From contig JAHDHV010000016.1 of assembly GCA_020631155.1 (NCBI GenBank), positions 1-34,170 on the forward strand: a stretch of 34,170 nt of DNA. Reading direction: 5' to 3'. The notes under the pieces were generated by a model that worked only from the letters and a program-made list of their open reading frames with translations, did not search any database and was not told where the DNA came from. How positions within the stretch are numbered: the first letter of the stretch is position 1; each line of letters starts with the position of its first letter. Positions 3,179-33,116 of this stretch are shown here, piece after piece. Source of the stretch: Bacteroidota bacterium. Its GTDB lineage: Bacteria > Bacteroidota > Bacteroidia > Chitinophagales > UBA2359. The position numbers and the translations under genes were made by a program.

Positions 3179-3343
3179 AATAATGAGTTGTGAATCATAA
3201 ACCTAAAACTGTTTTAGACTATATGAAGCGAAAAACTTAAACATTGGTAGAAACATATTTCTACTACGGTAAGGTTTTTCAAGGAAATATAAAGCAAAAT
3301 AATAAAGCAAATTGCTTCAACTGATTATTGTAGAATTACTAAG
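3179..3343. repeat. Copy 1 of a ~150-165-bp dispersed element (termini AATAATGAGTTG ... CAACTGATTATTGTAGAATTACTAAG), homologous to 19601-19753
   Basis: Co-linear blocks align between the two copies (AATAAT.A.TTG..A.CATAAA; AAG(G)CGAAAAAC; TACGGyrAGGyTTTTCAAsG; AAGCAAAATAAyAAAGC; CAAyTGATTATTGTAGrATkACTAA). Confidence 0.5.
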
Positions 3344-6856: not shown

Positions 6857-6876
6857 TTTAATTATGAATTTATTTA

Positions 6877-6940
6877 ATTACGAATTACGAATTACGAATT
6901 ACGAATTACGAATTAGAAATTACGAATTAGAAATTACGAA
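6877..6940. repeat. Tandem 9-bp repeat (ATTACGAAT / ATTAGAAAT) x7
   Basis: Direct reading; same unit recurs at 27430-27462. Confidence 0.85.
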
Positions 6941-6995
6941 TTGTTGAATTATTATTTAGTCAACTGACCATTAATAATTCAACAATTCATTTTTT
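6941..6995 (+). terminator. Hairpin TTGTTGAATTATTA-loop17-TAATAATTCAACAA followed by TTCATTTTTT; likely ribBA terminator
   Basis: 14-bp perfect inverted repeat plus T-run. Confidence 0.55.
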
Positions 6996-7034
6996 ATGAG
7001 AAAAAAATATTTTTTATTTTATTTGTTATTAACT

Positions 7035-8165: not shown

Positions 8166-8649
8166 AGAGCGACACCCAAATATTCTTCCTGAATGTTATG
8201 CGGATACTTTGCTAGTGCATTTACTCGGTTTCAAATATCCCAATCATTGCCCTAGTATTGGTGCGGTAGCAAATACGATGAAAAAACAAAGCCTCGCTAT
8301 TGGAGTGATAGATCGAGATAAAAGGCAGCCCAAATATTTTAGTGAGTTTGATTTATTGGAAGAAAAACACGATTTGCAACTCAAAAAGCACCCTAACAAG
8401 CGACATTATTTGATTGTAGTTTCTCCTGCTTTTGAAAAATGGATATTTAAGGCAGCAGATTCTGTTGATGTCAAACCTGAAAAATATGGTTTTAAAACTT
8501 GGAAACGCTTTAAAAATATTTCTAAAAGTAGAACTGTAGATAGAAATCAGGATTTTAAGCAATTCATCAATGCCATCAAGCAAAAAAAATCACCACCTAC
8601 AGAGCAGATGATTGAGTGGATTCAGGATATTTTAGATAAAAACCTTTGA
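8158..8649 (+). CDS. Small (163 aa) partner protein of module 1 ATPase; possible minimal Toprim/RloB-like effector (DxD in LAIGVIDRDKRQ). Start overlaps the ATPase stop (ATGAGTAA); an alternative ATG lies at 8152
   Basis: Translationally coupled overlap with upstream ATPase; basic protein; DxD motif; no confident family assignment. Confidence 0.45.
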   Translation: MSKERHPNILPECYADTLLVHLLGFKYPNHCPSIGAVANTMKKQSLAIGVIDRDKRQPKYFSEFDLLEEKHDLQLKKHPNKRHYLIVVSPAFEKWIFKAADSVDVKPEKYGFKTWKRFKNISKSRTVDRNQDFKQFINAIKQKKSPPTEQMIEWIQDILDKNL

Positions 8650-8892: not shown

Positions 8893-10185
8893 ATGAAAAG
8901 TTTTCGCATTAAAAATATAAAAGCTTTTAAGGATTCGGGGAAGATTGAAATAAAGCCGATTACTTTATTTTATGGCAAAAATAATACGGGAAAAAGCAGT
9001 TTAATTCGCTTTCCATTGGTATTAAAACAAACGATGCAGCGACCCTATGCCCCATTGATGTTTACAGGCATCCCCGAACGCCCTGATAATGTAGATTATG
9101 GCACTTATAAAGAAGTTGTGTTTAATAATGATGAAAGCAAACATATTGAGTTTGAATTGGAAGTGGATTATAGAAAAAATACCTTAAATTATTTAGTAAA
9201 TATTCAAAGAAAAAATGGACAACTTGAAGTGTTCTCTTATAAGGATAGGTATGAATCGTTGGAAGTAGAAGACGGTCAGTATATCTTCAGTGATTCACAA
9301 CTAACAAAGGAAGCAGTAGAAGTAGATTTTGATGGTTTTTTTCCAAAAGCGAGTCATTTTATTAATAAGCCAAAAACAGAAGATGGAAGGTTACTAGCTC
9401 GTCGTCATTCTTATCTAACTGACTTCTTCAATCAAATTTCTTACCTATCCACTTATCGTCCTAAACCAAAACGGCAATATCGTTTTAGTGATGTGGATTT
9501 CTCTAAATCGGGGGCAGAAGGCATTTATTGGGCAGAAATTTTGGGTTTTTATCATGAACAAAAAAATACCGCTTTTTTTGATGTACTTAATGATTGGTTA
9601 GTAAAAAATACAGGTTTAAGACTGTTGATTAAGGATTTGGGAAGTGTTTTTGAGATTATGGTAGAAAATATAAACACCAAACGAACAGATAATGTGGTAG
9701 ATATAGGCTCAGGATGGCAATTTCTACTACCTATTTTAATACAAACATTTGTTCATATTGAAAAAAAATCAGCTTCACCTTTTATTAAAATCATAGAAGA
9801 ACCAGAAATGCATCTGCATAGTTCGGTGCAAACAGCGGTTGCCGATTTATTTATTTGGGCAACACAAACGAATCCGCAAAATCGCTTTATGATAGAAACC
9901 CATAGTGAAAGTATTCTCTTGCGAACAGTTCGCAGGGTTATGGAATGGCTACAAACAAAAGGGGAAAAAGGCATTAATCCTGATGATGTAATTGTTTATT
10001 TTATTGAAAAAAGTGCCAATGAAGAAGAAGGTTCGAAGGTTACCCCTTTTAAAATTAATGAGAAAGGAATTTTGAAAAGTACTTTAGATGGTAGCATTAT
10101 GGATGAATCATTTTTTGACACTGATTTTGAGGAAGTAGTTGCCATTAACAAATTGCATGTATCACAGGCCGCGAAAAGTCAATAA
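8893..10185 (+). CDS. ABC-type ATPase (AAA_15/AAA_21-like, possibly with DUF3696-like C-terminus); module 2 ATPase, AriA/OLD-ATPase-like
   Basis: Walker A LFYGKNNTGKSSLIRF; signature-like IGSGWQFLLPIL; Walker B IKIIEEPEMHLH; H-loop MIETHSESILL; N-terminus MKSFRIKNIKAFKD. Confidence 0.75.
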   Translation: MKSFRIKNIKAFKDSGKIEIKPITLFYGKNNTGKSSLIRFPLVLKQTMQRPYAPLMFTGIPERPDNVDYGTYKEVVFNNDESKHIEFELEVDYRKNTLNYLVNIQRKNGQLEVFSYKDRYESLEVEDGQYIFSDSQLTKEAVEVDFDGFFPKASHFINKPKTEDGRLLARRHSYLTDFFNQISYLSTYRPKPKRQYRFSDVDFSKSGAEGIYWAEILGFYHEQKNTAFFDVLNDWLVKNTGLRLLIKDLGSVFEIMVENINTKRTDNVVDIGSGWQFLLPILIQTFVHIEKKSASPFIKIIEEPEMHLHSSVQTAVADLFIWATQTNPQNRFMIETHSESILLRTVRRVMEWLQTKGEKGINPDDVIVYFIEKSANEEEGSKVTPFKINEKGILKSTLDGSIMDESFFDTDFEEVVAINKLHVSQAAKSQ

Positions 10186-10188
10186 ACT

Positions 10189-11349
10189 ATGAATATTTGT
10201 ATTTCAGAAAATTTATGGAGGGCGGCTTTAACGGAAGAAGATACTTGCACTGTCATTGAAGAATTGCTACTTACTGTAAGAGCAAAAAAGCATAAGTTGT
10301 ATTTTGACTGGGACGAAGCTGTGCCTATTACAGAGTTGTTACAAAGTGATTTATTTGGTTTTTATAATCGAAGAATACTTAAAAAAAGCTATGAAAGATC
10401 ACGAACAGCTTTTCATTCCCTCGAAAAATATGTCTTAATCGTTCCTAAATCCTATATTGAGCAATGCAAAACGCAAGAGAATGTTAGGGCTTATTTTCAA
10501 GATCAAAAAGCAGTTAAAAGCAGCCCTGAACAAACGATTGAATTTATTGCTATTGAAGCTTGTCAACATTATTTATGCAGCCCTTTGATGATTATGGTGG
10601 AGGATGAAGAAAGTGATAAACTTTTTCTCAGTAGCATTTATCCTATTGTTATTCAATCAGTTAGCAATTTAGAAAATGCCAAATCCTTTGAAGAATTGAT
10701 TAAAGAACAGGAAATAGAGGTACTACATGGTGGAGGTACAGGTGTAACACAACGATTGAAGAATATCAAGTATCCTAGACGTGTTTTTTGCCTAATTGAT
10801 AGCGATAAATTATTTGAAAATGATGAAGGAACGGACGATACTAGAAAAAAACAAAGAGAAATCAACAATATTTGTAATCGAAAAGGCTTTGTTTTACATA
10901 TTCTCCACAACCGAATGATTGAAAATTACTTACCTGATAAAGCAATAAAAGAGTGGAGTAAAAAACAATCTCCTGTTATTCGACAAAACATAGCTAATCA
11001 CCCCTATTTTCAGCTAACAAGTACACAAAAAGCATTTTTTGATTGTAAAAAAGGTTTACTGCTCAAAGATTTTCAATATCCCGAAATTCAACAATCGTAT
11101 CTTGTACAATATCAACAAATACAACAAAATTCAGAACAATTTGATGCACTAAATAAGTTGATTCAAAACCAAGCTACAAAAGAAGATGGTAGCATTTTAA
11201 AAGTGAAAATTATTCAGGGCTTGAATCGGGAAATTTACAAAGCATTTAACGAAATCAAAAAAACTGAAAACCAAATCACCTCTGACAGTTTTGGAACGCA
11301 CCTCCAAGAATTAAAAGACATTTGCATAGCCATTCAAAGGCAGTTATAA
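10189..11349 (+). CDS. Module 2 partner (386 aa): putative Toprim-like (DUF4435/OLD-nuclease-like) effector
   Basis: Candidate Toprim elements MIMVEDEESDKLF (Glu), HGGGTG, FCLIDSDKLF (DxD); starts 4 nt after the ATPase stop; assignment by motif only. Confidence 0.45.
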   Translation: MNICISENLWRAALTEEDTCTVIEELLLTVRAKKHKLYFDWDEAVPITELLQSDLFGFYNRRILKKSYERSRTAFHSLEKYVLIVPKSYIEQCKTQENVRAYFQDQKAVKSSPEQTIEFIAIEACQHYLCSPLMIMVEDEESDKLFLSSIYPIVIQSVSNLENAKSFEELIKEQEIEVLHGGGTGVTQRLKNIKYPRRVFCLIDSDKLFENDEGTDDTRKKQREINNICNRKGFVLHILHNRMIENYLPDKAIKEWSKKQSPVIRQNIANHPYFQLTSTQKAFFDCKKGLLLKDFQYPEIQQSYLVQYQQIQQNSEQFDALNKLIQNQATKEDGSILKVKIIQGLNREIYKAFNEIKKTENQITSDSFGTHLQELKDICIAIQRQL

Positions 11350-11385
11350 CTCTATTAGAGTTTGGAGGTTGGTTTTTAGCCCTTT

Positions 11386-11450
11386 AAGTACTTAGACATA
11401 AGATGTGAGACATAAGACTTGAGATAGTTCATTCATTATTAACAGTTTAT
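11386..11450. repeat. Copy 1 of ~65-bp dispersed element AAGTACTTAGACATAAGATGTGAGACATAAGACTTGAGATAG...ATTATTAACAGTTTAT (second copy at 24060-24124)
   Basis: ~80% identity between the two copies, both immediately 3' of + strand stop codons. Confidence 0.5.
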
Positions 11451-11536
11451 GACAAGTTCAAATGTCATTTAATTTTGTCTAGTTACTTATTTTTTTAAAA
11501 AAGGGCATTAGTTTTAAAGTTTATTTAAAAAATAAA

Positions 11537-11574
11537 AACCTTATAACCTTATAACTTTGCAACCTTCCAAACCC
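11537..11574 (+). promoter_or_regulatory. Copy b of conserved upstream motif AACCTTATAACCTTATAACTTTGCAACCTTCCAAACCC, ends 25 nt before the NUDIX ATG
   Basis: Motif shared with 363-386 and 15677-15709(-). Confidence 0.3.
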
Positions 11575-15676: not shown

Positions 15677-15709
15677 GGAGTTTGGAAGGTTACAAAGTTA
15701 CAAGGTTTT
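15677..15709 (-). promoter_or_regulatory. Copy c of conserved upstream motif (minus strand reads AAAACCTTGTAACTTTGTAACCTTCCAAACTCC), 38 nt upstream of the FG-GAP gene ATG
   Basis: Reverse complement of GGAGTTTGGAAGGTTACAAAGTTACAAGGTTTT. Confidence 0.3.
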
Positions 15710-16027
15710 AAAGTTTTTATTTTTTTTAATGAATTTTAAATCTAATGCTTTTTGTCTTGTTAGTCAAAAATATACAAAATTCAAAGAGGTTATTATTTTT
15801 TTTATCAATAAAATAAAAGGCGAAAAGTCAATTTAGCTCCAAACTCTAAAAAGTTTTAAGGTTAAAAAGTTGGAAAGTTTTATATTATTGGCTTTATATG
15901 ATTGGCGAAGTCCATATAATTTTTTTTAAAAAAAGTTAATTATCAATTACTTAGTCTAATCTCTGATTTCTAACAGCTATACCAAAAACAGTTTAGAATC
16001 GTAATTTTTTATAGCCAAAGCCTATAA

Positions 16028-16183: not shown

Positions 16184-16263
16184 CTAAAAATCTAAAAATC
16201 TAAAAATCTAAAAATCTAAAAATCTAAAAATCTAAAAATCCAAAAGTCCAAAAGTCCAAAAAT
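16184..16263. repeat. Tandem 8-bp repeats (CTAAAAAT x6, CCAAAAGT x2, CCAAAAAT) followed by a leader-like TCGAACTTCTAATTGCTAACCTCT
   Basis: Direct reading; same unit family as the 2111-2414 array. Confidence 0.85.
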
Positions 16264-16789
16264 CGAACTTCTAATTGCTAACCTCTATTCATTATGACGA
16301 TTGCAAACTATAAAAAAGATGGCTAAGTAAACCAATGTAATCAATTTTTGGTGTTTTTGATGTAATACATCCGCCAATTAGTTAAGAAATACACAAAGAA
16401 CTTAGCAGAAATAAGTAAATAGTGACTTTACTATGATAAATGTAGACTAAAATATAAGCGAAATAGTGTTAGCTTTTAGAAAGCTTGTAGAAGCATTTTA
16501 TGAATTGTTTTTACTGGAAAGATGTGAAGTTTTTTATATTTTAAGTTGATGATATTTTTTTTATTTAAAAGTTTGATAATCAAGTTAAAACCCAATTAAA
16601 AAGCTAATATCTGATTGCTGTTTACTGAAAAGCTAAAAGAAATATTGTTTTTTAGAAAAATTATAAGCCAATTCAGCATCTAAATTTGAATTTTACTTAT
16701 TTTTGTGACCATTTTGAGACATTTGTATTCCATTAAACCATTATATAGGCGCAGTCCTCAAGCCCCTACCAATCATTAACACAAGCTTT

Positions 16790-19600: not shown

Positions 19601-19753
19601 AATAATCAATTGAACCATAAAGCCACAGTGATTTTGTTTTGTACAAGGCGAAAAACGTAGGCATAGTGTGGAGCTACGGCGAGGCTTTTCAACGTAGTAC
19701 AAGGCAAAATAACAAAGGCGACTGGTTCAATTGATTATTGTAGGATGACTAAT
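19601..19753. repeat. Copy 2 of the ~150-bp dispersed element; starts 7 nt after the antiporter stop; perfect 17-bp terminal inverted repeats AATAATCAATTGAACCA / TGGTTCAATTGATTATT
   Basis: Co-linear homology to 3179-3343; internal direct repeats GTACAAGGCGAAAA / GTACAAGGCAAAAT. Confidence 0.5.
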
Positions 19754-20432: not shown

Positions 20433-20787
20433 GAGTAAATGTTTTTAATTTAGGTAAAGTGAAAAGGTAAGCGAAATAGAATAGACTATTTTTTTGTGGG
20501 AGAATACTAGATGTCACACATCAAGTTAAATTTATTTATACAAATATTGGCATGTTTTCTGAAAATACAGTAACTTACAGCACCTATACAACCATTTTCC
20601 AACAATACTAACTACTGGAAAGTTCCTAGAAAAGACTTTATTTTAAATTTAATACTATAAAGGAACTATTTGTTTGAAAACATCCTTGTTTTTTACGGAA
20701 GGAATTTACTTAATCTTGAATTGAGGTTAACTACTAGTGGCTTGATTATCTCAAATCTTATGTCTAATTTCTTATATCTAAGTACTT

Positions 20788-21525
20788 ATGATAGAACTCT
20801 TAAATGAATCCTTATCCTCTGCAAATATTTTACTGACGTTCTTATTGATTGTCATGCTAATATACTGGTTTTTTGTTATATTAGGTGCAATTGATATGGA
20901 ATTTTTTGATTTCGATTTAGACCTAGAGGCGGATATGGATGTTGACGTAGATGTGGATGTAGATGTAGATGTGGACGCAGATATGGATGTGGACGCAGAT
21001 GCTGATGCAGATACGGCGAGTACTGCTAGTGGAGGCCCCGGAATTTTTGTGTCTATCCTACAATTTTTCAATGTGGGTTCTATCCCATTTATGATGTTCC
21101 TCAGTACATTAGTCCTTTGCATGTGGGTCATTTCTATCCTCACCAATTATTACATTATCCCAAATAAAACTTTTGCACTTGGATTATTGTTTATGATTCC
21201 AAATTTATTTATCAGTCTATTTATCAATAAAATAATCACTACACCACTTGTTTACATATTTAAAAACTTGGATGTTGCTCATAAAGATATGGACTTAATT
21301 GGTCATCTGTGTACATTAACTTTAGCCCTGAAAGGGGGACAACTAGGGCAGGCAGAAATTATTGCAAACAAAGGCGATCATTTGAGCATTACAGTTAGAG
21401 CAGCTAAAAATGCTTCATTTAAAAAAGGAGATAAAGCAGTGATTTTGGATAAAAATGAAGAAAGAGGATACTATGTGATTGGACAAATAGATGAAGATTT
21501 AGAAGCTTTTGAATTTAAGAACTAA
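20788..21525 (+). CDS. NfeD-like membrane protein (short YuaF-type homolog with C-terminal OB-fold), with internal (DV/DA)n repeat
   Basis: N-terminal TM segments; C-terminal GQAEIIANKGDHLSITVRAAKNASFKKGDKAVILDKNEERGYYVIGQ resembles the NfeD OB-fold; sits immediately upstream of the flotillin gene, as in yuaF-floT operons. Confidence 0.6.
   Translation: MIELLNESLSSANILLTFLLIVMLIYWFFVILGAIDMEFFDFDLDLEADMDVDVDVDVDVDVDADMDVDADADADTASTASGGPGIFVSILQFFNVGSIPFMMFLSTLVLCMWVISILTNYYIIPNKTFALGLLFMIPNLFISLFINKIITTPLVYIFKNLDVAHKDMDLIGHLCTLTLALKGGQLGQAEIIANKGDHLSITVRAAKNASFKKGDKAVILDKNEERGYYVIGQIDEDLEAFEFKN
20929..21013 (+). repeat. In-frame hexanucleotide microsatellite (GATGTG/GATGCA)n encoding DMDVDVDVDVDVDVDADMDVDADADAD
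   Basis: Direct reading inside the NfeD-like CDS. Confidence 0.7.
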
Positions 21526-21565: not shown

Positions 21566-21617
21566 ATTTCTGATCTCTAACTTCTAAAAACCTAAATATC
21601 CAAAAGTCCAAATATCC
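21566..21617. repeat. Short copy of the leader plus 16-bp repeat family (AATTTCTGATCTCTAACTTCTAAAAACCTAAATATCCAAAAGTCCAAATATCCA)
   Basis: Matches leader and units of the 2080-2414 array. Confidence 0.7.
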
Positions 21618-21742
21618 ATATTATTGAATCAAAAATAAATGTCTTATGTCTTTACTGTTGATTATTTTTTTATTATGTTTGCTGCATAAATGCAGTGAAT
21701 TAGGAGCTTTGTGAAATTAAAAACAATAAACTATATATAACT

Positions 21743-24061
21743 ATGATATTATTAAGTATTTTAGGGGCTCTAGGCGTTGCTGGCCTAGTCATTGTTGCCA
21801 TCATTTTAATGGGTATTATTGCCTTTATTGCCTCTTTTTATAGAAAAATTCCACAAGGTTCTGCCCTAGTTCGCACAGGTGCAGGCGGTACAAAAATTGG
21901 TTTTGACAGTGGAATGGTCGTTTTGCCTGTCCTTCACTTAGCCGAAATAATGGATATTGCGGTTAAAAAAGTGGAAATTGAACGTATGGGCAAAGACGGT
22001 TTGATTTGTAAAGACAATTTACGTGCAGACATCAAAGTAGTGTTTTTTGTTCGGGTAAATAAATCGGTGGAAGGTGTAGAGCGAGTAGCGCAAACCATTG
22101 GTTGTGCGCGTGCTTCAAGCATCGATACCTTGGTTACCTTATTTGAAGCGAAGTTTTCAGAAGCTCTAAAAACGGTTGGTAAACGCTTCGATTTTGTAGA
22201 CCTCTATGATTCGCGTGAAGCTTTTAAGCAAGAAATTATCAACGCAATTGGTACAGACCTAAATGGTTATGTATTAGATGATTGCGCTATTGATTATTTA
22301 GAGCAAACGCCTATCGAACATCTTAAAGAAAGCAATATTTTAGATGTAGAAGGTATCAAAAAAATCACTGAATTAACTGCTAGAGAAAAAATTAAAGCAA
22401 ATTTAATTCGTAGAGAGGAAGAAAAAACCATCAAAAAACAGGATGTTGAAGCCAAAGAAGCCATTTTGGAACTAGAGCGTCAATTGGCGGAAAAGGAAGA
22501 AATTCAAAGGCGAGAAATTGCCATTATTAAGGCAAGGGAAAGTGCAGAAACTCTGCGTGTGCAAGAGGAAGAACGCCTGAAAGCCGAGCGAGCAAGAATT
22601 ACAACAGAAGAAGAACTGCAAGTAGCCGAAGAAAATAAATTGCGACAAATTATTGTTGCTCAAAAAAATAAGGAGCGAACAGAAGCCATTGAAACAGAAA
22701 AAGTACATAAGGATAAGCAGTTGGAAGTGACAGAGCGAGAGAAAATTGTGGCTTTGGCGCAAATAGAAAAGGAAAAAGTGGTAGAGGAGGAGCGCAAAAA
22801 CATTCAGGATGTGATTAGAGAGCGCGTGATGGTAGAAAAAGCAGTGGTAGAGGAGGAAGAAAAAATCAAAGATACCAAAGCATTTGCCGAAGCAGAAAGA
22901 AATAAATCGGTTGCGATTACGGTTGCTGAACAGCAAGCAGAAGAAGCATTGGTGAAGCAATTGAAGGAAGCAGAAGCACAAAAATTGTCGGCAGAATGGA
23001 AAGCACAACAGCGATTAATTGATGCCGAAGCAGAAAAAAATGCATCAGCAAAAGAAGCAGAAGCCAAGAAAATTATGGCGGAAGCAATTGCAGCAGAGGA
23101 AGCAGCACTTGGGGTATCGGAAGCGCAAGTAATGGAAGCAAAAGCAATAGCCGTTGAGCGTCAAGGAGTTGTAGAAGCAAATATCATTACCAAAAAAGCA
23201 GAAGCGGAGGCAAAAGCAATTGCATTGAAAGCGGAGGCAGCCAAAAAGCGCGGTTTGGTAGAGGCAAATATAATGCAAGAAAAAGGTTTGGCAGAGGCAA
23301 GGGTTATCGAAGAAAAAGCCTTTGCAGAAGCCAAAGGTTTAGAGGAGCGCGGTGTGGCAGAAGCGAAAGTTTTGGAGCAGGCAGCATTAGCAGAGGCCAA
23401 AGGTATTGAAGAAAAAGGCAGCGCGGAAGCGAAAATTTTGGAGCAGGCAGCATTGGCAGAAGCCAAAGGCATTGCAGAAAAAGGCAGCGCAGAAGCAAAA
23501 ATTTTAGAAGAAGCAGCACTTGCAGAAGCCAAAGGTATTGAGCAGAAGGCAGAGGCGATGAAAAAATTGGATGGTGTAGGTAAAGAGCATGAGGAGTTCA
23601 AACTCAGATTGGAGAAGGAAAAAGCCATCGAATTGGCAGCCATCAAGATTCAGGAAGCCATTGCCGAGTCACAAGCTAAAGCCATTGCCGAAGCACTCAA
23701 ATCTGCAAATATCGACATTGTGGGTGGTGAAACGATGTTCTTTGAGAATATTGTAGAAGCTATTACAAGAGGTAAAACGATTGACAGAACGATTGATAAT
23801 AGCCAAAATTTGACGGCTTTGAAACATGGACTTTTAGGCAATACTGCGAATGGCGGCGGCAATGTGATGGATAAAATCAAAGGCTTTGTCAAGCAGTTCA
23901 ACTTAGATACAGAGGACATTAAAAACTTGTCCCTCACTGCTTTAATGGTGAAAATGATTGCAATGAGCAGCAATAGCAATGACAAAAGTATCTTAGGCGA
24001 ATTGCTTAATGTAGCCAAAGGAGTAGGCATCGCCAATAAAAAAGTAGATAGCTTGTTTTAA
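21743..24061 (+). CDS. Flotillin-family (SPFH/band 7) protein, unusually long (772 aa) with an extended Ala/Glu-rich coiled-coil repeat region
   Basis: N-terminal TM + SPFH domain (IPQGSALVRTGAGGTKIGFDSGMVVLPVLHLAEIMDI...); repeated AEAKGIEEKGSAEAKILEQAALAEAKGI units. Confidence 0.85.
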   Translation: MILLSILGALGVAGLVIVAIILMGIIAFIASFYRKIPQGSALVRTGAGGTKIGFDSGMVVLPVLHLAEIMDIAVKKVEIERMGKDGLICKDNLRADIKVVFFVRVNKSVEGVERVAQTIGCARASSIDTLVTLFEAKFSEALKTVGKRFDFVDLYDSREAFKQEIINAIGTDLNGYVLDDCAIDYLEQTPIEHLKESNILDVEGIKKITELTAREKIKANLIRREEEKTIKKQDVEAKEAILELERQLAEKEEIQRREIAIIKARESAETLRVQEEERLKAERARITTEEELQVAEENKLRQIIVAQKNKERTEAIETEKVHKDKQLEVTEREKIVALAQIEKEKVVEEERKNIQDVIRERVMVEKAVVEEEEKIKDTKAFAEAERNKSVAITVAEQQAEEALVKQLKEAEAQKLSAEWKAQQRLIDAEAEKNASAKEAEAKKIMAEAIAAEEAALGVSEAQVMEAKAIAVERQGVVEANIITKKAEAEAKAIALKAEAAKKRGLVEANIMQEKGLAEARVIEEKAFAEAKGLEERGVAEAKVLEQAALAEAKGIEEKGSAEAKILEQAALAEAKGIAEKGSAEAKILEEAALAEAKGIEQKAEAMKKLDGVGKEHEEFKLRLEKEKAIELAAIKIQEAIAESQAKAIAEALKSANIDIVGGETMFFENIVEAITRGKTIDRTIDNSQNLTALKHGLLGNTANGGGNVMDKIKGFVKQFNLDTEDIKNLSLTALMVKMIAMSSNSNDKSILGELLNVAKGVGIANKKVDSLF

Positions 24062-24124
24062 GTACTTAGACGTAAGATATGAGATATGAGACTTGGGGTA
24101 ACTGATTTATTGTTAATTGTTTAT
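24060..24124. repeat. Copy 2 of the ~65-bp dispersed element AAGTACTTAGACGTAAGATATGAGATATGAGACTTGGGGTAACTGATTTATTGTTAATTGTTTAT; overlaps the flotillin stop codon
   Basis: Alignment with 11386-11450. Confidence 0.5.
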
Positions 24125-24220: not shown

Positions 24221-24268
24221 ACAACTCACAACTCACAACTCACAACTCACAACTCACAACTCACAACC
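24221..24268. repeat. Heptanucleotide tandem repeat (ACAACTC) x ~6.5 immediately upstream of the folC ATG
   Basis: Direct reading. Confidence 0.85.
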
Positions 24269-25583: not shown

Positions 25584-25635
25584 TGTTGTTTTTGTTTCTA
25601 AAAATCTGTATTTTTGTAGAAAAAAAGAAATAAAT
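25584..25635. repeat. 52-bp direct repeat, copy 1 (TGTTGTTTTTGTTTCTAAAAATCTGTATTTTTGTAGAAAAAAAGAAATAAAT), abuts the abiEi ATG
   Basis: Identical to 27034-27085. Confidence 0.9.
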
Positions 25636-26263
25636 GAGCTTTTTTGAATTTCAAAATACCTTTGTTAAGCATCCTGTTATTTCAATATTAGAGATTAAAA
25701 AGTACTTTTCAAATTTTGATAATAATGCTTTAACTCGATGGCAAAAAAAAGGATATATAAGAAAAATTAGAAATGGTTTTTATCGTCTAAGCAAACCAAA
25801 GATTACTACTGTAGAAGAACTATTTTTTACTGCAAATCGCATTTATTGGCCTTCTTACATTTCGTTACATTCTGCTTTGCGATGGTATGATTTTATTCCA
25901 GAGGAAGTATTTTCAATAACCTCTGTTACTACTAAAAAAACACAGCAGTTTGAAACAGTAGATGGCACGTTTAAGTATCAAAATTTTAAAAAGAATCTGT
26001 TTTTTGGGTATAAACTAGAAAAGAATAATAAAGGATATTACTTTAAAATGGCAACACCAGAAAAAGCATTACTAGATTTTTTGTATTTGAATCCCCATCT
26101 TAAAACAGAAGATGATATTTTTGAATTGCGATTAAATGCTTTTGAAATTCAGGAGAAAGTAAATCTAAAAGTTTTAGATGCATATTTGTCACTTTTTGAT
26201 TCTAAAGCCTTAAATAAAAGAGTAAGTAATTTTAAAAAAATATTATATAATGAAAACTATTGA
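25634..26263 (+). CDS. abiEi: AbiEi-family antitoxin / transcriptional regulator (type IV TA)
   Basis: N-terminal wHTH GYIRKIRNGFYRL; core PSYISLHSALRWYDFIPEEVFSITSVTT typical of AbiEi; overlaps downstream abiEii by 14 nt. Confidence 0.8.
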   Translation: MSFFEFQNTFVKHPVISILEIKKYFSNFDNNALTRWQKKGYIRKIRNGFYRLSKPKITTVEELFFTANRIYWPSYISLHSALRWYDFIPEEVFSITSVTTKKTQQFETVDGTFKYQNFKKNLFFGYKLEKNNKGYYFKMATPEKALLDFLYLNPHLKTEDDIFELRLNAFEIQEKVNLKVLDAYLSLFDSKALNKRVSNFKKILYNENY

Positions 26264-27026
26264 TGAAATTTGTTCCTTTTATCCTTCTGCTTTGCATAAT
26301 CGGGGAGCTTTTTTGTTGAGGGAGTATTTACAGTATAAGATTTTAGAGATCATATTTCAAAGTGACTATGCCTTGAAATTTTCATTTTTAGGTGGAACTT
26401 GTTTACGTATTATCCATAATACTCAGCGATTTTCAGAAGATTTAGACTTTGATAATTTTGATTTATCAGAGAAAGATTTTGAATTAGTTTCAGAGGTAAT
26501 TAAAAATGGGTTAGAAGAGCAGGGCTTTCGCGTTGAAATGCGTAATGTCTTTCGAGCAGCATATCATTGTTATATTCGCTTTCCTGGATTATTATATAAA
26601 ATGGGGCTAAGTGGACATAAAGAGGCTAAAATTTTAATTAACTTAGATACAGAACCACAAAACTTTGTTTTTCAGTCTGAAACACATTTTTTAAATAAAT
26701 TTGATGTTTTTACCTCAATATATACGACTCCATTAGACCTATTATTAAGCCAAAAAATTCTAGCAATTACGCAAAGAAAGCGACCTAAAGGACGGGATTT
26801 TTACGATGTCGTTTTTTTGAGTGGGCATACAAAACCAAATTATGGTTTTTTAACACAACGTTTGTCTATTACTAATGCAGATGAACTAAGAATACATATG
26901 GAAGCTATTTGCAAAAAAAGGAATTTTCCACAACTAACTAAAGATGTTGAACCATTTTTATTTAATATAAAGGATCGGCAACGCATTTTATTATTTCCTG
27001 AATATCTTAAAACTATAAAATGGTAA
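26250..27026 (+). CDS. abiEii: AbiEii/AbiGii-family nucleotidyltransferase toxin (DUF1814)
   Basis: Motifs SFLGGTCLRI and RFSEDLDFDN characteristic of AbiEii nucleotidyltransferases. Confidence 0.85.
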   Translation: MKTIDEICSFYPSALHNRGAFLLREYLQYKILEIIFQSDYALKFSFLGGTCLRIIHNTQRFSEDLDFDNFDLSEKDFELVSEVIKNGLEEQGFRVEMRNVFRAAYHCYIRFPGLLYKMGLSGHKEAKILINLDTEPQNFVFQSETHFLNKFDVFTSIYTTPLDLLLSQKILAITQRKRPKGRDFYDVVFLSGHTKPNYGFLTQRLSITNADELRIHMEAICKKRNFPQLTKDVEPFLFNIKDRQRILLFPEYLKTIKW

Positions 27027-27033
27027 TCAATTG

Positions 27034-27085
27034 TGTTGTTTTTGTTTCTAAAAATCTGTATTTTTGTAGAAAAAAAGAAATAAAT
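27034..27085. repeat. 52-bp direct repeat, copy 2, identical to 25584-25635
   Basis: Exact match. Confidence 0.9.
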
Positions 27086-27108
27086 TAACTTTTAAAGACA
27101 AAGTATTT

Positions 27109-27429
27109 CTAATTATCCCGCCTAGGAAATGCCAACTTCATTAAAATTCCAATAAGCCCACCTGTAATAGCCCCTGCCAAAATGGTATGCGACCAAGTGC
27201 CAGAGGAGGCAGCAACAATAATAAAAAATAACGCACCAATCACCACACTAAGCCCAATAATACCACCACAACCAACAAAGAACCCATGATTCAGGTCTTT
27301 ATGAAACCAGCCGATAAAGGTGCCCATTAAGGTAGCAATGATAACGTTTAACCAATTCCCGTCAAATAGAAATAGTTGGATAAGTCCTAAAATAATGCCT
27401 GCAATGAAACCGCCGATGATGTCTCTCAA
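27109..27429 (-). CDS. GlsB/YeaQ/YmgE-family small membrane protein (transglycosylase-associated)
   Basis: Gly-rich TM helices IIGGFIAGIILGLI...GGIIGLSVVIGALFF...GAITGGLIGIL typical of the family. Confidence 0.7.
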   Translation of the reverse strand: MRDIIGGFIAGIILGLIQLFLFDGNWLNVIIATLMGTFIGWFHKDLNHGFFVGCGGIIGLSVVIGALFFIIVAASSGTWSHTILAGAITGGLIGILMKLAFPRRDN

Positions 27430-27462
27430 TTTAATTACGAATTAGAAATTACGAATTATGAA
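27430..27462. repeat. 9-bp ATTACGAAT / ATTAGAAAT repeats (same family as 6877-6940)
   Basis: Direct reading. Confidence 0.75.
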
Positions 27463-27515
27463 TTGTTTTTTTGGATGGGGGAGATATAAAGGTTTTCAAT
27501 CTAATTGATAAGTTT

Positions 27516-27851
27516 TTAATCAAGTGTTGCCAATAACCCCTCTAATGACTGTTCCCAGGGTTCATCAGTCATGAGTGTTTGTACTTCCTTGAATGTGATT
27601 GATTGATTGCCTTGTTCTTCAAATATTTGTTCTTTTGATATGGCTTTGCGAATGTTTATTTTTCCCAAGTGAAATTTATCCATCTCTTGTGGGCTAGGCG
27701 TTGTATTTTCCAAAGCTAATTGAACTGTTGTATAAATAGCTTGGAGTTGTTGATAATCTGTTATTTTTGTTATCAAGCTTATCAGGTCAAGTTTGATGTC
27801 ATTGAGTGAGTTTTCATTTTGTTTTTTTAGTTTTCCTTCAAGGAGTTTCAT
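27516..27851 (-). CDS. Hypothetical 111-aa protein, third gene of the UPF0175/DUF3368 operon (overlaps the PIN gene by 14 nt)
   Basis: Clean ORF, operon position; no recognisable motif. Confidence 0.4.
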   Translation of the reverse strand: MKLLEGKLKKQNENSLNDIKLDLISLITKITDYQQLQAIYTTVQLALENTTPSPQEMDKFHLGKINIRKAISKEQIFEEQGNQSITFKEVQTLMTDEPWEQSLEGLLATLD

Positions 27852-28326
27852 TTGCCATATTTAAAATGCGAATTTTAAGCTGGGGTTTGATATAGAACCC
27901 AACTTGTTCGAGTTCTGTCAAGATGAGTTTCACTTCTGGAATCAACTTTTGTGTCTTAGCATCAATCAATAAGCCTAACAAACCAATGGTGTTTAGCCCA
28001 ATTTCTCTAGCCTTTTTTGTTCCAATACGTTCATCAATCAATAACAGATTTGCATTTAATTCTTTGGCTAAAGTAATTGCTTCTGCTTCGCCTCTATCTA
28101 GCACTTTCAGTAAGTTTTGAACAGAAACATTGTTTTTAGGCTGCTGTATTCTTAACCAACTAGCTTGATTGTAACTTGTTAAGTCAATATTGAAATGAGC
28201 TAGTGCTAGGATTTCATTATGAACAAAAGGTGGGACTATCACCTCATTAAACAATTGACCTAGCAATTCAAACCGTCCAATTTGAATCAAGTTGCTGATA
28301 GGAGAGGTATCACTTACAACAATCAT
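27838..28326 (-). CDS. DUF3368-family PIN-like putative toxin
   Basis: N-terminus MIVVSDTSPISNLIQIGRFELL and LLIDERIG typical of DUF3368/COG2405 PIN-like proteins; 4-nt overlap with the upstream UPF0175 gene. Confidence 0.7.
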   Translation of the reverse strand: MIVVSDTSPISNLIQIGRFELLGQLFNEVIVPPFVHNEILALAHFNIDLTSYNQASWLRIQQPKNNVSVQNLLKVLDRGEAEAITLAKELNANLLLIDERIGTKKAREIGLNTIGLLGLLIDAKTQKLIPEVKLILTELEQVGFYIKPQLKIRILNMANETP

Positions 28327-28568
28327 TGTTTTCTTAATTTAGCTAAAGTTTTCATATCTTCTTCAAAATCTTCAATGTCATAATGAATAGGGATTTTACA
28401 TTTTGCCAACTCCCTTTGAAATTGTATTTGATGAATACCTGCAAGTTGACTGCCTTGACCTAGTGTTATTTTTTCTTCTTTAAAAAGTTCAATTGCCAAT
28501 TTCAACATAAGTGCCTCTATGCTTATACCAATCTGTGCTAGAAGTTGGTCTGGAATTTCAATTGTCAT
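28323..28568 (-). CDS. UPF0175-family putative antitoxin
   Basis: MTIEIPDQLLAQIG...LMLKLAIELFKEEKITLGQGSQLAG matches the UPF0175 pattern; paired with DUF3368. Confidence 0.7.
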   Translation of the reverse strand: MTIEIPDQLLAQIGISIEALMLKLAIELFKEEKITLGQGSQLAGIHQIQFQRELAKCKIPIHYDIEDFEEDMKTLAKLRKQ

Positions 28569-28665
28569 ATTTTTCTATTAAATGGATTAATGGGTATCTA
28601 TAAAATAACAGAGGCTTTAGGTGTTTGGTTTAACATCAAAAAAACGATTAGACCACTCATGGTAG

Positions 28666-28718
28666 AATTGGACAAGCCCTAAAATAATGCCTGTGATACA
28701 TCCGCCGATGATGTCTCT
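28666..28718 (-). pseudogene. Diverged (~82% identity) duplicate of the first ~17 codons of the GlsB-family gene (start ATG changed to ATA), 1.24 kb from the intact copy
   Basis: Alignment of 28666-28718 with 27374-27426; reverse-complement translation I-RDIIGGCITGIILGLVQ vs MRDIIGGFIAGIILGLIQ. Confidence 0.55.
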
Positions 28719-28745
28719 TATGTAGAAATGAATTATTAGTTATTT

Positions 28746-31328
28746 TTATTCGTTGAGCTTTTTTACCAATGAAAACAATCTAGAGGTGTCTACTATTACT
28801 TCATTTAATTGTTCTTTACTATATTTAGCTACTCTTGAATGAAAAGTTTCATTTCGTTCATCTATTGTGTACTCTTTTAAATTCTTTACCACTTGCTTTA
28901 TAATTAACTTAATTTCGTTAGTTTTGGAATTACCAAAATAGTTTAAAATAAAGTTGTGTTCTAACCACAGCCAATTTAAAACTTTTTTCATTTCACCAAG
29001 GCTAGAATAGTATATGAGATGTAAATCATTTTTTAAAGCTCTATTTCTATTATATTCCCATTTAGATACTAACTTTGAGTTTCTTTTATTTACAAAATCT
29101 TCAAATGTTATGTCATTTTCAAAAAGTTCAATTACAAAAATTCTTAATTGCTCTTCCGAGTTTATTAAGTGAGTCGTTATTTTTTGTATCATATTTTCTT
29201 GTTCTTCTTCAGCAATCATTTTCTTTGCTTTTGCATAAACACTTTTGCAGTTTTCATCATTAAGGGCAATCCTCTTATGATCTTCAAATGTTATAAGTAT
29301 TCTTTCCCAATCACGCTCACTTGCATGGATTTGTAATAAAACTCTTAATGCATTTTTTTCATACTCAATATCTGTGTCTTTATCTGAGTAGGTTAATATT
29401 TTTTTTGCTATTTTCTTTGCTTTTTCATAATCTCTATCTTTACTTGAGGTATAGTAGTTCATGTCCTTTACAAAATAATTGATGGAATTTTTTATCTTAT
29501 TTTCATAGAGTCTTATTTTACTATTAATCTTATCATTAGAAAAAATTTTCAGATATTTAGTATGAACTTTCTTTTTTTCTTTTAAATATTTTATTTTATT
29601 TTCAATACTGTCATCTTCCTTAACTAGTTTATCTACTAATTGTAAATAAATATTTTTTTCCTTATGCACAAGTAAAGTCAATTCAATACTTTTCCATTCC
29701 CGTAAAAATTCTATTTTATCAGCAATTCGTTCATTATTATATTGACTAATTATTTTTTTTGCTTCCTCCCTTAGTATTTCAAATCTTTTTAAATATTTAT
29801 ATATGTTAATGTACTGTTTTGCAATTGAGGTGTCATATGATGTTTCTTTTAAAGCGTTTATTGCTATGTTAATTGCAACTTGTCTTCTTTTGGGACGCTG
29901 TTCCATTTTTATCCAATCAAACCATATGTTTTTATTAGTTGGATTGAGCTCTGTAGCTCTACGAAAATTTTCAGATGCTTTAGAATACAAATAAAGAACA
30001 GTTTGTACTTTTGCTAACTCATGATATAATCTATAATCTTCAATTCTTTCAATTGCATTTATTAGTGAATTTTCAGCTCCCTTATAATCTAAGTCATTTA
30101 AATAGATTTTTAATCTTTCAAGAAATAAGTCAACTTTATCTTTAGAAATCTCCTTATTTAGCATCGCATTTTTAAGTCCAAGTACTTTGTTCTCTATTTC
30201 GTCGTAGTCTATATAGTGCTGTTTAGCAAAATTTATAGCCATCTTACTTATTATTATTTCTCCATTAGCACTTTCAGCAATCAACTGATTTGCATAGAGT
30301 TCATCAATAATTTGCTCCAGTTTGCCAGAATCAAAGTTACTATAGTTCATTAGAGTTTCTATTGTGATAGGTTCATCTTTTTTACTCCGATTTCTATGTA
30401 ATGAAGTTATTATTTTAAATATCAACTGTGTATCTGTGTTCAATGATTCATACATATCCTTGAAACTAAATAGGATTATTTCAGACATTCTTTGTTTTTT
30501 CTCTTTAGGCGTTTTAGCATCTTCAATACTAGGATAACCCTCAAGTTCTTGAAAAATTTGCCCTCTAGACTTACCTCTGATTAGTTGTCCAATTATAAAT
30601 TCAATAGCTAGTGGAATTTTTCCAACTCGTTCTATTAACTTTAAGTTCATCTTTTCGGAAGAATTGATGATTTCAAGAATTCTCTTTTCTCTATTATTTT
30701 CTGCTAACCATATTAACATATCATAGGCTTTTGTCAGAGAAAGACCTTGTATTTCAATAGGAAAGTCTGCTATCTTTTTTCTTTTTCGTGATGTAGTTAA
30801 CACTTTTAAATATCTATTATTTCGGCTATATTTATTGAATTTTCTGAGAAAAGTGAAAAAATCGGGATTATTTATCGTCTCCAAGTTATCTAATACAAAA
30901 AAGATTTTTTCATCTTTTACAATTTCTTCAAAAAAACTCTTTCGTTCTAGAAAAGGATGTTTAAGGAATTCGGGGAATCCAGCTAATCTAATAGTTTCAT
31001 CAATTAATATTTCAATTGGCTTATCTTTGAATTCATTTTTTATATTTATTATTTGATTATCTGTTGCAAAGGCATCAAAAACAGTATTCTTCGCTGTAAC
31101 CCAAACAAGGTAACTAAAATCACCACTTTTAAGCAAATATTCTTTACAGAAATAATAGGCTAGTGCTGTTTTGCCAATTCCACCAATTCCATCTATAGAG
31201 GCTATATATGTGCCACCTTCAATTAATTCATCTTTGATTTTTGAAATTGTGTTTTCACGACCAAAAAATTTCATATATGGTTGATTTGGTAAATTGTGAG
31301 TTGTTTTTGTATATGTTAGCTCTTTCAT
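28746..31328 (-). CDS. STAND-class NTPase (NB-ARC-like P-loop at residues ~45-55) followed by ~600 aa of TPR/helical repeats; no recognisable N- or C-terminal effector domain
   Basis: P-loop IDGIGGIGKTALAYYF; Walker B FFVLDNLE; repetitive helical remainder with frequent Y/W/K-rich ~34-aa periodicity. Confidence 0.7.
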   Translation of the reverse strand: MKELTYTKTTHNLPNQPYMKFFGRENTISKIKDELIEGGTYIASIDGIGGIGKTALAYYFCKEYLLKSGDFSYLVWVTAKNTVFDAFATDNQIINIKNEFKDKPIEILIDETIRLAGFPEFLKHPFLERKSFFEEIVKDEKIFFVLDNLETINNPDFFTFLRKFNKYSRNNRYLKVLTTSRKRKKIADFPIEIQGLSLTKAYDMLIWLAENNREKRILEIINSSEKMNLKLIERVGKIPLAIEFIIGQLIRGKSRGQIFQELEGYPSIEDAKTPKEKKQRMSEIILFSFKDMYESLNTDTQLIFKIITSLHRNRSKKDEPITIETLMNYSNFDSGKLEQIIDELYANQLIAESANGEIIISKMAINFAKQHYIDYDEIENKVLGLKNAMLNKEISKDKVDLFLERLKIYLNDLDYKGAENSLINAIERIEDYRLYHELAKVQTVLYLYSKASENFRRATELNPTNKNIWFDWIKMEQRPKRRQVAINIAINALKETSYDTSIAKQYINIYKYLKRFEILREEAKKIISQYNNERIADKIEFLREWKSIELTLLVHKEKNIYLQLVDKLVKEDDSIENKIKYLKEKKKVHTKYLKIFSNDKINSKIRLYENKIKNSINYFVKDMNYYTSSKDRDYEKAKKIAKKILTYSDKDTDIEYEKNALRVLLQIHASERDWERILITFEDHKRIALNDENCKSVYAKAKKMIAEEEQENMIQKITTHLINSEEQLRIFVIELFENDITFEDFVNKRNSKLVSKWEYNRNRALKNDLHLIYYSSLGEMKKVLNWLWLEHNFILNYFGNSKTNEIKLIIKQVVKNLKEYTIDERNETFHSRVAKYSKEQLNEVIVDTSRLFSLVKKLNE

Positions 31329-31592: not shown

Positions 31593-33116
31593 CTAGTAAT
31601 AACGGTTTTCCCCGAAAAGTTATTACTGATAGTCAGCGAGTTATGCATTTTCTGCATGAAAAAAGGGTGTTTTATCCGTTTTTTGAAATAAATATATAAC
31701 AGATGACACTTTCATAGTAATGGATTATTTCCATTTAAAGAAGTAGCCACTAATAAATTTTCTAGCCAGTGGTCTCTATATCTAAAGCCATTGAGTTGCT
31801 CAAAACGCGACTTCACTCCCCCTTTAGCTTTAATGGTTTGGCTACTATAATGGCTAAAATTAATTAAAAGGGCATGAGCTCGCATGATGTCATTGGCACT
31901 CTGTATGTCACCATGAAAGTGCTACATAGCACTTAATTTTTTTTTTGTGTTTTCATCAATCTATCTAACATATTAGAGGTTCTACGACAATCTATTTGGT
32001 CATAATAAGTCATATATTCCTCTTTTTTAAGACAGAGTTTCAGGGCTGCTTTTTTGAGTGGATTATCAGGCAGGTGTAGGAGTATCCATTCTTCTAAGCG
32101 TCTCATTTGTTGGGCAAAACTTTGTTTATTTTCTGCCTTATAAGCTGTCCAAGCCTTTTTTAGTAGTACAGTCGCATAAGGTTGTAATTGTTTAGTCGCT
32201 CTTTTGTCTATATTGAGTATGCCATGTAAAAAACAACGAATCAGTGTGGTGTTCTCAAATAAGTGTTCCATTACTTTAAGGGTAGATTTAAAGCCATCTG
32301 TATTGATAGTCAATGGTTTATAATCATCTGCTATGCACTTAACTTCTTGTTTAAAGACTTCATAAGCATTCGTTAAGTGCTCAAAGTCAATGGATGGACT
32401 AGCGGCTGTACCCAAAAAACAATCTCCACCTACGGTGGTGGCTAAATATATTTTTTGCCCATTTAGCTTGTCATGGTGTTCATCTACAATAAGATGCTCT
32501 GGAAGCAAAGACCGCCTTTTGATGCTTGTTCCAACAATGTTTTTTCATGCCCAAAAGCACTCCGCTCGATACCAGAACATGGCATCTTTACCCAACAAAG
32601 TGACTACAGCATGATAAGGCACATTATAACGTCGTAGAAACAAACCTTCTGCAACAAAGCTAGTGCTTGCACGTAAATATGGAAACATAAAACAAGGATG
32701 TAAGAGGTATTCTGCTTGATTAGATAGTAGCTGAATTCTACGTCTAGGCAAAGCTTGTTTTTGACTTGTTTTACTCCAACCATAAAAACGATAGCCTTGT
32801 TGGATAGCAGTTGGAAATAACTCTGGAAAACAGCTAATTAAGTCATCTATATACTTTCTAAATTCAAAACGATTATGTAAAACCTCTGCATAAGAGCGCA
32901 TGTCGATAGGTAATATAATTGTTTTTGAACCCCTGTTGCTTAAAAGATAATTTTGCATATGACAAAGATGCTGATTATCAAGCAATTAACCTAATTAAAA
33001 CAAAAATAGAATGTATATGTTTTCCAAGATCCGATAAACTTGATTTTTTACCCCCTTTTTTTTCGTAAATTACTGATTATCAAGCTTATAAAATCGGGGA
33101 AATCCGTTACAACTAG
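31593..33116 (-). mobile_element. Degenerate insertion sequence (~1524 bp): imperfect ~27-bp terminal inverted repeats (CTAGTAATAACGGTTTTCCCCGAAAAG vs reverse complement CTAGTTGTAACGGATTTCCCCGATTTT), perfect 8-bp target-site duplication TCATTTTC (31585-31592 and 33117-33124); DDE transposase gene interrupted
   Basis: TIR and TSD read directly; internal ORFs 32545-32985 and 31933-32508 plus further C-terminal fragments down to ~31700 are co-linear on the minus strand but separated by a frameshift and stops. Confidence 0.7.
31700..32985 (-). pseudogene. Transposase pseudogene (frameshifted / stop-interrupted; family not assignable by eye)
   Basis: Two ORF fragments and downstream stop-containing continuation (e.g. 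HYSSQTIKAKGGVKSRFEQLNGFRYRDHW) in different frames. Confidence 0.55.

Follow-up and report, generated by a model that had tools for sequence, protein, structure and literature searches.

The closest described relatives of the locus studied here are two-gene toxin-antitoxin modules in which a UPF0175 antitoxin is encoded next to a DUF3368 toxin. A survey of the PIN superfamily found UPF0175 only together with COG2405/DUF3368, and the known three-component COG2405 systems have HTH and DUF955 partners (PMC5499597). The stretch of DNA analysed in this study, hereafter called the window, is one whole NCBI contig of 34,170 nt (JAHDHV010000016.1) assigned to a Bacteroidota bacterium. Within it, a UPF0175 gene and a DUF3368 gene are followed on the same strand by a third open reading frame (ORF3) encoding 111 amino acids, and the block formed by the three genes lies between two diverged copies of the start of a small membrane-protein gene. 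A first-pass annotation had treated this block as a single three-gene operon inserted beside the membrane-protein gene. We conclude that the locus is most likely an ordinary recombination scar rather than a new three-gene system. The block itself is probably composite, and we read it as a toxin-antitoxin patch that has partly decayed and that lies in a variable part of an uncultured Bacteroidota genome, among many defence genes.

All three minus-strand reading frames exist as first described, including the 14-nt overlap between the DUF3368 gene and ORF3. The first two genes resemble other UPF0175/DUF3368 pairs in the families to which their products belong, in their antitoxin-first order with UPF0175 directly upstream on the same strand, in their 4-nt overlap, in the lengths of the proteins, and in the acidic residues of the toxin. 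Both profile matches are well above their cut-offs (69.5 bits versus 27.9 for PF03683, and 42.2 bits versus 27.3 for PF11848), and the DUF3368 protein also matches the PADLOC candidate defence system PDC-S70 (E = 1.5e-52). More than 1000 homologues of this toxin have the same length as the copy in the window, and the residues D6, E38, D77, E80, D98 and E99, which are invariant across 16 DUF3368 homologues, are all present in it. By these features, the two genes appear to be a normal, intact type II toxin-antitoxin pair, and presumably the surviving pair acts as a toxin-antitoxin or defence module of the usual kind. The sole difference from other such pairs is that a foreign antitoxin gene is fused at the 3' end of the pair in the window. 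The nearest DUF3368 relative on a large contig (locus L104) has the plain two-gene layout. At that locus, a BrnT-toxin pair directly follows the UPF0175/DUF3368 pair (1102-1813 of L104), such that toxin-antitoxin modules are stacked in tandem.

Evidence that the third gene comes from elsewhere is provided by its homologues. A full HMMER scan recovered about 80 representative clusters of the ORF3 family, and the close homologues share 54-66% identity with ORF3. At seven independent loci (L013, L014, L015/L016, L097, L098, L099 and L100) the context of an ORF3 homologue was established and, in all seven, down to 40% identity, a PF01850 PIN gene lies directly downstream. These partner genes encode proteins of ~150 amino acids that begin with MDYLLDSNI, and they start 3-33 nt after the ORF3 homologue. 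The first-pass annotation had proposed that homologues of ORF3 be searched for conserved linkage to UPF0175/DUF3368 pairs, but this linkage is seen at 0/7 loci, where the PF01850 PIN gene is the partner instead. Moreover, ORF3 and UPF0175 are unrelated as judged by profile comparison. These findings do not bear out a single three-gene operon, and indicate that ORF3 belongs to a different two-gene module. The third gene had been described as an unexplained addition to a module that normally has two genes. It is indeed an addition, but can now be explained as the leftover antitoxin of a second module.

On the basis of gene order, namely the PIN gene that lies downstream at each of the seven loci, we consider the ORF3 family to be the antitoxin-like partner of a VapC-type toxin. 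The other loci are like VapBC-type modules in that a small ORF3-family gene sits just upstream of a PF01850 PIN gene. Unlike VapBC antitoxins, however, its members resemble neither a Pfam antitoxin family nor any solved structure or recognisable DNA-binding fold. Searches with 54 members found no Pfam match, and neither a PDB sequence match nor a Foldseek match at E < 1 was obtained for the family, which falls in none of the recognised antitoxin or DNA-binding folds (RHH, AbrB, Phd/YefM, HTH). An AlphaFold model of ORF3 computed from 54 sequences (pLDDT 76) predicts, with confidence, an N-terminal helical hairpin followed by a less ordered tail. A first model computed from 7 sequences was discarded (pLDDT 47). 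One ORF3 homologue of 110 amino acids (P0011, L013 6001-6333) carries the JGI label "3,4-dihydroxy-2-butanone 4-phosphate synthase". This label is almost certainly an error because the protein is so short and is encoded upstream of a PIN gene.

In the window, ORF3 appears to be an orphan, as the remainder of an incomplete module from which the PIN toxin gene was deleted. A tblastn search with the partner PIN proteins found no such gene anywhere in the contig, and only 86 nt separate the stop codon of ORF3 from the start of the membrane-protein gene. The ATG equivalent to the start codon of the homologues is located at 27817-27815, where it is out of frame by +2 nt, and the reading frame of ORF3 opens at an ATG at 27851, within the last codons of the DUF3368 gene. 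As judged from this arrangement, ORF3 would be translatable only from the ATG inside the DUF3368 gene, on a read-through transcript. DNA homology to other ORF3-PIN modules is confined to about 27511-27821, and therefore the module's own upstream region is missing. Thus, ORF3 in the window is unlike a VapBC antitoxin in having no toxin, no start and no promoter of its own, and it resembles orphan antitoxins produced by toxin loss. Nevertheless, five residues that are near-invariant in the family are all kept, so that ORF3 either remains useful or lost its partner only recently.

A possible last trace of the missing toxin follows ORF3. Nucleotides 27500-27480 read IENLYIS on the minus strand, and partner PIN proteins carry I(E/D)LLYIS eight codons before the stop. 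When the neighbouring heptamer array is excluded, the trace shares 6/8 identities with the C-terminus of the L014 PIN protein, a result reached by 0/1000 shuffles, and 5/8 identities with three other PIN proteins (p about 0.05-0.07). The corresponding DNA-level alignment is not significant. These data give moderate support to the possibility that 27465-27500 includes a 7-codon remnant of the lost toxin. A larger match of 9/18 identities (0/5000 shuffles) was rejected as inflated, because its last 5 codons are located within the heptamer array.

The direct repeat that brackets the block was originally reported at 27374-27426 and 28666-28718, and on these coordinates 45/53 nt are indeed identical. 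Trimmed to 27376-27426 and 28668-28718, the two copies match at 44/51 nt (86% identity) with no gaps. Aligned locally to all other parts of the contig, 27370-27470 scores at best 67, compared with 29.1 +/- 2.7 (maximum 40) for dinucleotide shuffles. Because 0/200 shuffles reached this score, the repeat lies beyond chance by the shuffling check that the first-pass annotation had itself proposed. The fragment is also recovered by tblastn searches with the membrane protein and three of its homologues (E = 3e-5 to 1e-3). The repeat covers 18 codons of the gene rather than the 17 first given. Copy A is the beginning of the intact gene, whereas copy B is a dead fragment. The reported change of the start codon from ATG to ATA is wrong, because neither copy has ATG: the fragment does read ATA at the matching position, but the intact copy starts with TTG at 27429-27427, such that its minus strand reads TTG-RDIIGGFIAGIILGLIQ. 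Copy B runs from ATA-RDIIGGCITGIILGLVQ into unrelated sequence and reaches a stop after 34 codons. It has no canonical start codon in frame, and no open reading frame is listed there.

Similarity between the two copies breaks off abruptly past codon 18. On the other side of the start codon, the repeat probably extends about 25 nt further upstream (27443-27470 versus 28723-28747), where an alignment score of 29 is reached by 23/3000 shuffles and where the intact copy has extra repeat units. Over codons 2-18, copies A and B differ at 7 nt, with 4 of these differences at third positions. Three of the changed codons are synonymous, and the remaining differences change F to C, A to T and I to V. 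Two blocks inside the repeat, of 16 and 17 nt, are perfectly conserved. Since the longest perfect block is 17 nt, recombination between copies A and B should now be rare. The spacer between copy B and the UPF0175 gene (28569-28667) shows no similarity to the intact membrane-protein gene or to any fetched locus, and carries no promoter consensus.

The identity first assigned to the flanking gene, as a member of the GlsB/YeaQ family, was not upheld. The 106-amino-acid product resembles GlsB/YeaQ/YmgE proteins (PF04226) in being a small, glycine-rich membrane protein, but it is longer, gives no PF04226 match at E <= 10, and belongs to a very rare family. It likewise has no Pfam family at E <= 0.01, and no match was found in a scan of GTDB. 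Any resemblance to E. coli YeaQ is limited to the first transmembrane segment (31% identity over 36 columns), and an hhalign comparison of the family profile with a YeaQ sequence entered by hand yielded a probability of 10.6%. The family comprises only 6 clusters (5 besides that of the window) in 5.8 billion proteins, at 40-54% identity, and the five other clusters all begin at the same position. Elsewhere, homologues are single-copy and their neighbourhoods are unrelated to this locus. For example, at locus L102 the gene follows an rpoC-like gene, so named by sequence inspection only.

Transcription of the block was evaluated by scans for signals. No terminator-like site is present between the DUF3368 gene, ORF3 and the membrane-protein gene, where the terminator scan found nothing above shuffle level. 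Co-transcription of the toxin-antitoxin block with the membrane-protein gene is therefore plausible, and the latter is probably part of the same transcript. A sigma-70 promoter scan likewise gave nothing above shuffle level, and no Bacteroidetes-type TAnnTTTG box is located upstream of the toxin-antitoxin pair or of the membrane-protein gene. A search of Rfam with 26900-28900 returned no match.

Independent assemblies were used to assess the integrity of the region. Logan contig L001 carries the NB-ARC gene that borders the block, copy B, both toxin-antitoxin genes and ORF3, all at 100% identity to the window. The region from the NB-ARC gene to ORF3 is identical in three independent assemblies (k=31) made from the source samples, and all of them end at 27430-27432. 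These ends are most simply caused by the heptamer array. The reading of these ends, and of the ends at 25584/27063 in the neighbouring AbiE region, as alternative haplotypes was dropped, because the heptamer array and a 52-nt repeat tangle the k=31 graph.

The proposal that an insertion duplicated, or recombined through, the start of the membrane-protein gene holds in part. A 1.24-kb block is bracketed by two copies of that start, but a transposase-type target duplication is unlikely because the repeats, with a length of 51 to about 80 nt, have diverged by 14%, and because no transposase or recombinase is encoded in the block. In the interval 27430-28667 there is no transposase, and no terminal inverted repeats were reported. 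Other routes by which DNA integrates are Campbell-type integration, the movement of integrase-less elements flanked by att sites, and homology-facilitated illegitimate recombination. The locus is like the products of these routes in that cargo is bracketed by direct repeats of the target, with one repeat on a truncated piece of the gene and the other on the working gene. It is unlike them in that no recombinase, excised form or empty site was observed, and in that the repeats are 14% diverged with no perfect block longer than 17 nt.

For the composite patch that we favour, a history can be proposed. The stump beside the NB-ARC gene, whose stop codon lies 24 nt upstream of copy B, would mark the place, directly downstream of that gene, where a copy or allele of the membrane-protein gene once sat. 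The toxin-antitoxin block would then have arrived together with the present 5' end of the gene, through recombination within or next to the gene start. A circle with a short homologous segment might have integrated by a single crossover (Campbell-type), or DNA from a diverged relative might have been joined on one side by illegitimate recombination. With later decay, the second toxin would have been lost, and its antitoxin would persist as a passenger that is harmless and possibly protective. Recombination at the membrane-protein gene is preferred partly because the upstream flanks are alike and because similarity stops abruptly after codon 18.

Several points weigh against this reconstruction. 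No close relative or alternative haplotype was found in GTDB or in protein collections, and the ancestral arrangement and the direction of the event are unobserved. The link between the block and the intact membrane-protein gene, which crosses the heptamer array, is present only in the NCBI contig, where a mis-join is possible. The 7 substitutions in codons 2-18 are too few to distinguish a diverged functional allele from an in-place duplicate that has decayed. In addition, the trace of the PIN toxin is weakly supported once the heptamer array is excluded, and the expression and function of all genes are inferred from sequence.

Alternative explanations of the block were weighed against the same observations. 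If UPF0175, DUF3368 and ORF3 formed one mobile three-gene operon, with the gene start duplicated as a target-site duplication, then the shared direction of the reading frames, their overlaps of 4 and 14 nt, and the direct repeats that bracket the block would be expected. This explanation is nonetheless very unlikely. Relatives of ORF3 always precede a PF01850 PIN gene and never adjoin UPF0175/DUF3368, the protein is unrelated to UPF0175, and L104, the closest DUF3368 locus examined, has the simple two-gene layout. In the three-component COG2405 systems that have been published, the partners are instead HTH and DUF955 (PMC5499597), and neither the divergence (14%) and length (51 to about 80 nt) of the repeats nor the lack of an encoded transposase in the block fits a target-site duplication. 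Still harder to credit is a repeat that reflects only chance in an AT-rich genome, or an artefact of assembly. The contig has 33% G+C and is full of short repeats, and the Logan contigs do break at 27430-27432. However, none of the 200 shuffles reached even 60% of the observed score, a protein search with four family members recovers the fragment, and copy B with its surroundings is present at 100% identity in the independent contig L001. The two copies also differ from one another, so they represent neither a collapsed nor a duplicated assembly path.

Two further explanations deserve more weight than these, although we regard both as unlikely. By the first, copies A and B would be the attL and attR sites of an integrase-less cargo that was moved in trans and that replaced the 5' end of its target, and successive elements may have accreted at the same site. 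The direct repeats that bracket the cargo, the substitute start that keeps the target gene intact, and the perfectly conserved blocks of 16 and 17 nt are all consistent with site-specific integration. The same is true of the AbiE genes next door, which have a perfect 52-nt repeat and are carried on a Logan contig with the same 30 nt at both ends. However, none of the larger open reading frames of the contig, which spans only 34 kb, showed an integrase or recombinase domain. The two repeat pairs are unrelated and would need different recombinases or none, and the circular-looking contig is equally explained by a repeat longer than the k of the assembler. By the other explanation, which we likewise doubt, the gene start was duplicated in place, by tandem duplication or as tandem paralogues, and the upstream copy was truncated by an insertion or deletion and then drifted. 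This would fit substitutions that show no significant bias to synonymous sites, and a copy B in which the start codon is gone and the frame meets a stop. Against it, homologues are single-copy in other genomes, not one indel has accumulated over 51 nt despite 14% divergence, the edge of the similarity is razor-sharp, and more steps are required than for one recombination event. The coordinates of the block, its repeats and the neighbouring features are collected in the following table.

Features of the 34,170-nt window that are discussed in the text (positions count from the first nucleotide of the window).
Feature	Position	Strand	Details
AbiLi-like AAA_15/AAA_21 ATPase	6996-8165		defence-type; with 165-aa partner, module 6996-8649
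PADLOC PDC-M55A/B pair	8893-11349		E = 2.7e-65 and 3.7e-21
AbiEi/AbiEii cassette	25634-27026 (with repeats 25584-27085)	plus	Pfam, NCBIfam, self-BLAST
Membrane-protein gene, 106 aa, intact	27109-27429	minus	TTG start; 3-4 hydrophobic segments by inspection
Copy A, first 18 codons of intact membrane-protein gene	27376-27429	minus	
Heptamer microsatellite (AATTACG/AATTAGA)n ending AATTGTT	27433-27471		directly upstream of membrane-protein gene
Possible last trace of PIN toxin	27465-27500	minus	reads IENLYISPIQK
ORF3, 111 aa, predicted orphan of uncharacterised antitoxin-like family	27516-27851	minus	
DUF3368 (COG2405) PIN-like toxin gene, apparently intact	27838-28326	minus	PF11848 E = 7e-11
UPF0175 (COG2886) antitoxin gene	28323-28568	minus	PF03683 E = 1.9e-19, full profile
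Spacer, 99 nt, presumed promoter region of UPF0175/DUF3368 pair	28569-28667		
Copy B, dead fragment of membrane-protein gene start	28668-28721	minus	codon 1 ATA; codons 2-18 RDIIGGCITGIILGLVQ
Short degenerate counterpart of heptamer array	28722-28747		between copy B and NB-ARC stop codon; score 29, 23/3000 shuffles
NB-ARC (STAND-type) gene, 860 aa	28746-31328	minus	PF00931 E = 6.6e-10

Repeat-bracketed cassettes occur twice at this locus, because the AbiEi/AbiEii pair on the other side of the membrane-protein gene is also flanked by a direct repeat. This repeat is perfect over 52 nt (25584-25635 equals 27034-27085). Its first copy reaches into the ATG of abiEi, and the second copy has ATT at that point and then diverges. 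Each of the two cassettes beside the membrane-protein gene thus lies between long direct repeats with a gene start in them, and the two repeat pairs are unrelated in sequence. Each copy of the 52-nt repeat contains a TATTTTTG box, which we take to fit the Bacteroidetes -7 promoter consensus. Logan contig L101 (1,480 nt) corresponds to 25584-27063, exactly one unit from repeat to repeat, and begins and ends with the same 30 nt. This structure fits either an assembly path bounded by a repeat longer than k or an excised AbiE circle. The perfect 52-nt repeat could still support excision.

The 9-bp ATTACGAAT repeats noted earlier within the block do exist, but they are part of a heptamer microsatellite, (AATTACG)n, and are not separate repeats. 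Tandem Repeats Finder reports a period of 7 with 4.6 copies of AATTACG at 27433-27464, and 9.6 copies in a longer array situated between the AbiLi-like gene and ribBA (6876-6942). The 12-mer AATTACGAATTA has 9 matches in the contig versus 0.6 expected, all of them at 6876-6943 or 27433-27458, and by self-BLAST the array at 27433-27471 is 90-94% identical to 6872-6957. No copies of the array are present in any other fetched locus. Both arrays separate a housekeeping-type gene (ribBA or the small membrane-protein gene) from a defence or toxin-antitoxin cassette. Heterocystous cyanobacteria carry short tandemly repeated repetitive (STRR) sequences, which are intergenic arrays of heptamers. The arrays in the window are like STRR sequences in having a heptamer unit, in being tandem and intergenic, and in occurring as several arrays per genome. 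They differ in their unit, AATTACG, and in belonging to another phylum.

Other short-period arrays are located at 1886-1955, 2107-2406, 16184-16264, 21594-21618 and 24221-24267, and are mostly intergenic. They include units of 7-8 nt, a 16-nt unit repeated 18.8 times, and a perfect ACAACTC array of 6.7 copies. Because the ACAACTC array lies within the 5' end of the listed Mur-ligase reading frame, the true start of this gene may be further downstream. Several families of dispersed intergenic repeats of 40-80 nt, which are 78-88% identical, are found at gene ends. Examples are 11383-11450, which resembles 24057-24124 (direct) and 20747-20788 (inverted), 11498-11572, which resembles 15680-15753 (inverted), and the pair 3264-3342 and 19674-19752. 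These repeats may be repetitive extragenic palindromic (REP)-like or miniature inverted-repeat transposable element (MITE)-like elements, or shared terminators.

Several defence-type modules are encoded on the contig, comprising the AbiLi-like, PDC-M55A/B, AbiEi/AbiEii and NB-ARC genes. The 860-amino-acid NB-ARC protein has a long, helical C-terminal part and no PADLOC match, and its gene may represent a defence gene of the Avs-like kind that is not yet classified. When the NB-ARC and AbiEii proteins were looked up by exact sequence, only fragments of this window's own sequence were returned. Searches of plasmid and viral collections gave no match. Beyond the NB-ARC gene, two open reading frames of 191 and 146 amino acids at 31933-32985 have only a sub-threshold DDE-transposase match and resemble insertion sequence debris. 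Contig L001 ends within this region, at 31982. A 772-amino-acid reading frame at 21743-24061 belongs to no Pfam family, has internal coding repeats of 33/66 nt at 23252-23552, and exhibits a strong strand bias in G and A.

The window as a whole has a G+C content of about 33%, and is AT-rich with many short repeats. Because it encodes a protein with a type IX secretion system (T9SS) sorting domain, and because its Mur-ligase gene reaches no more than 52% identity with any GTDB representative (top matches in a GTDB scan were metagenome-assembled genomes of Saprospiraceae), the window can be assigned to a poorly sampled, uncultured Bacteroidota lineage.

Nothing at this locus is surprising for a specialist. 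A broader and rather improbable interpretation is that AbiE and toxin-antitoxin cassettes are shuffled around a fixed small gene without an integrase borne by the elements, with the 5' ends of genes being rebuilt in the process. Such shuffling would be driven by host recombination or by a recombinase acting in trans and, if it is real, Logan contig L101 (1,480 nt), whose two 30-nt ends match, could represent AbiE excised as a circle. It is also conceivable that the orphan ORF3, tied translationally to the DUF3368 gene, might be retained for the protection that it gives against PIN toxins of its cognate family when these enter the cell.

The ORF3 family, with proteins of ~100 amino acids, about 80 clusters at 50% identity and no Pfam entry, is a candidate new antitoxin family and a consistent partner of VapC-type PIN toxins. 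The two adjacent repeat-bracketed cassettes are a hint that cassettes turn over by recombination in this sparsely sampled lineage of Bacteroidota. More generally, the locus offers a small, clear case of toxin-antitoxin modules that accumulate, fuse and decay in defence islands, where the traits of decay are the loss of a toxin, an orphan antitoxin, the loss of a promoter, and a reading frame rescued from the upstream gene.

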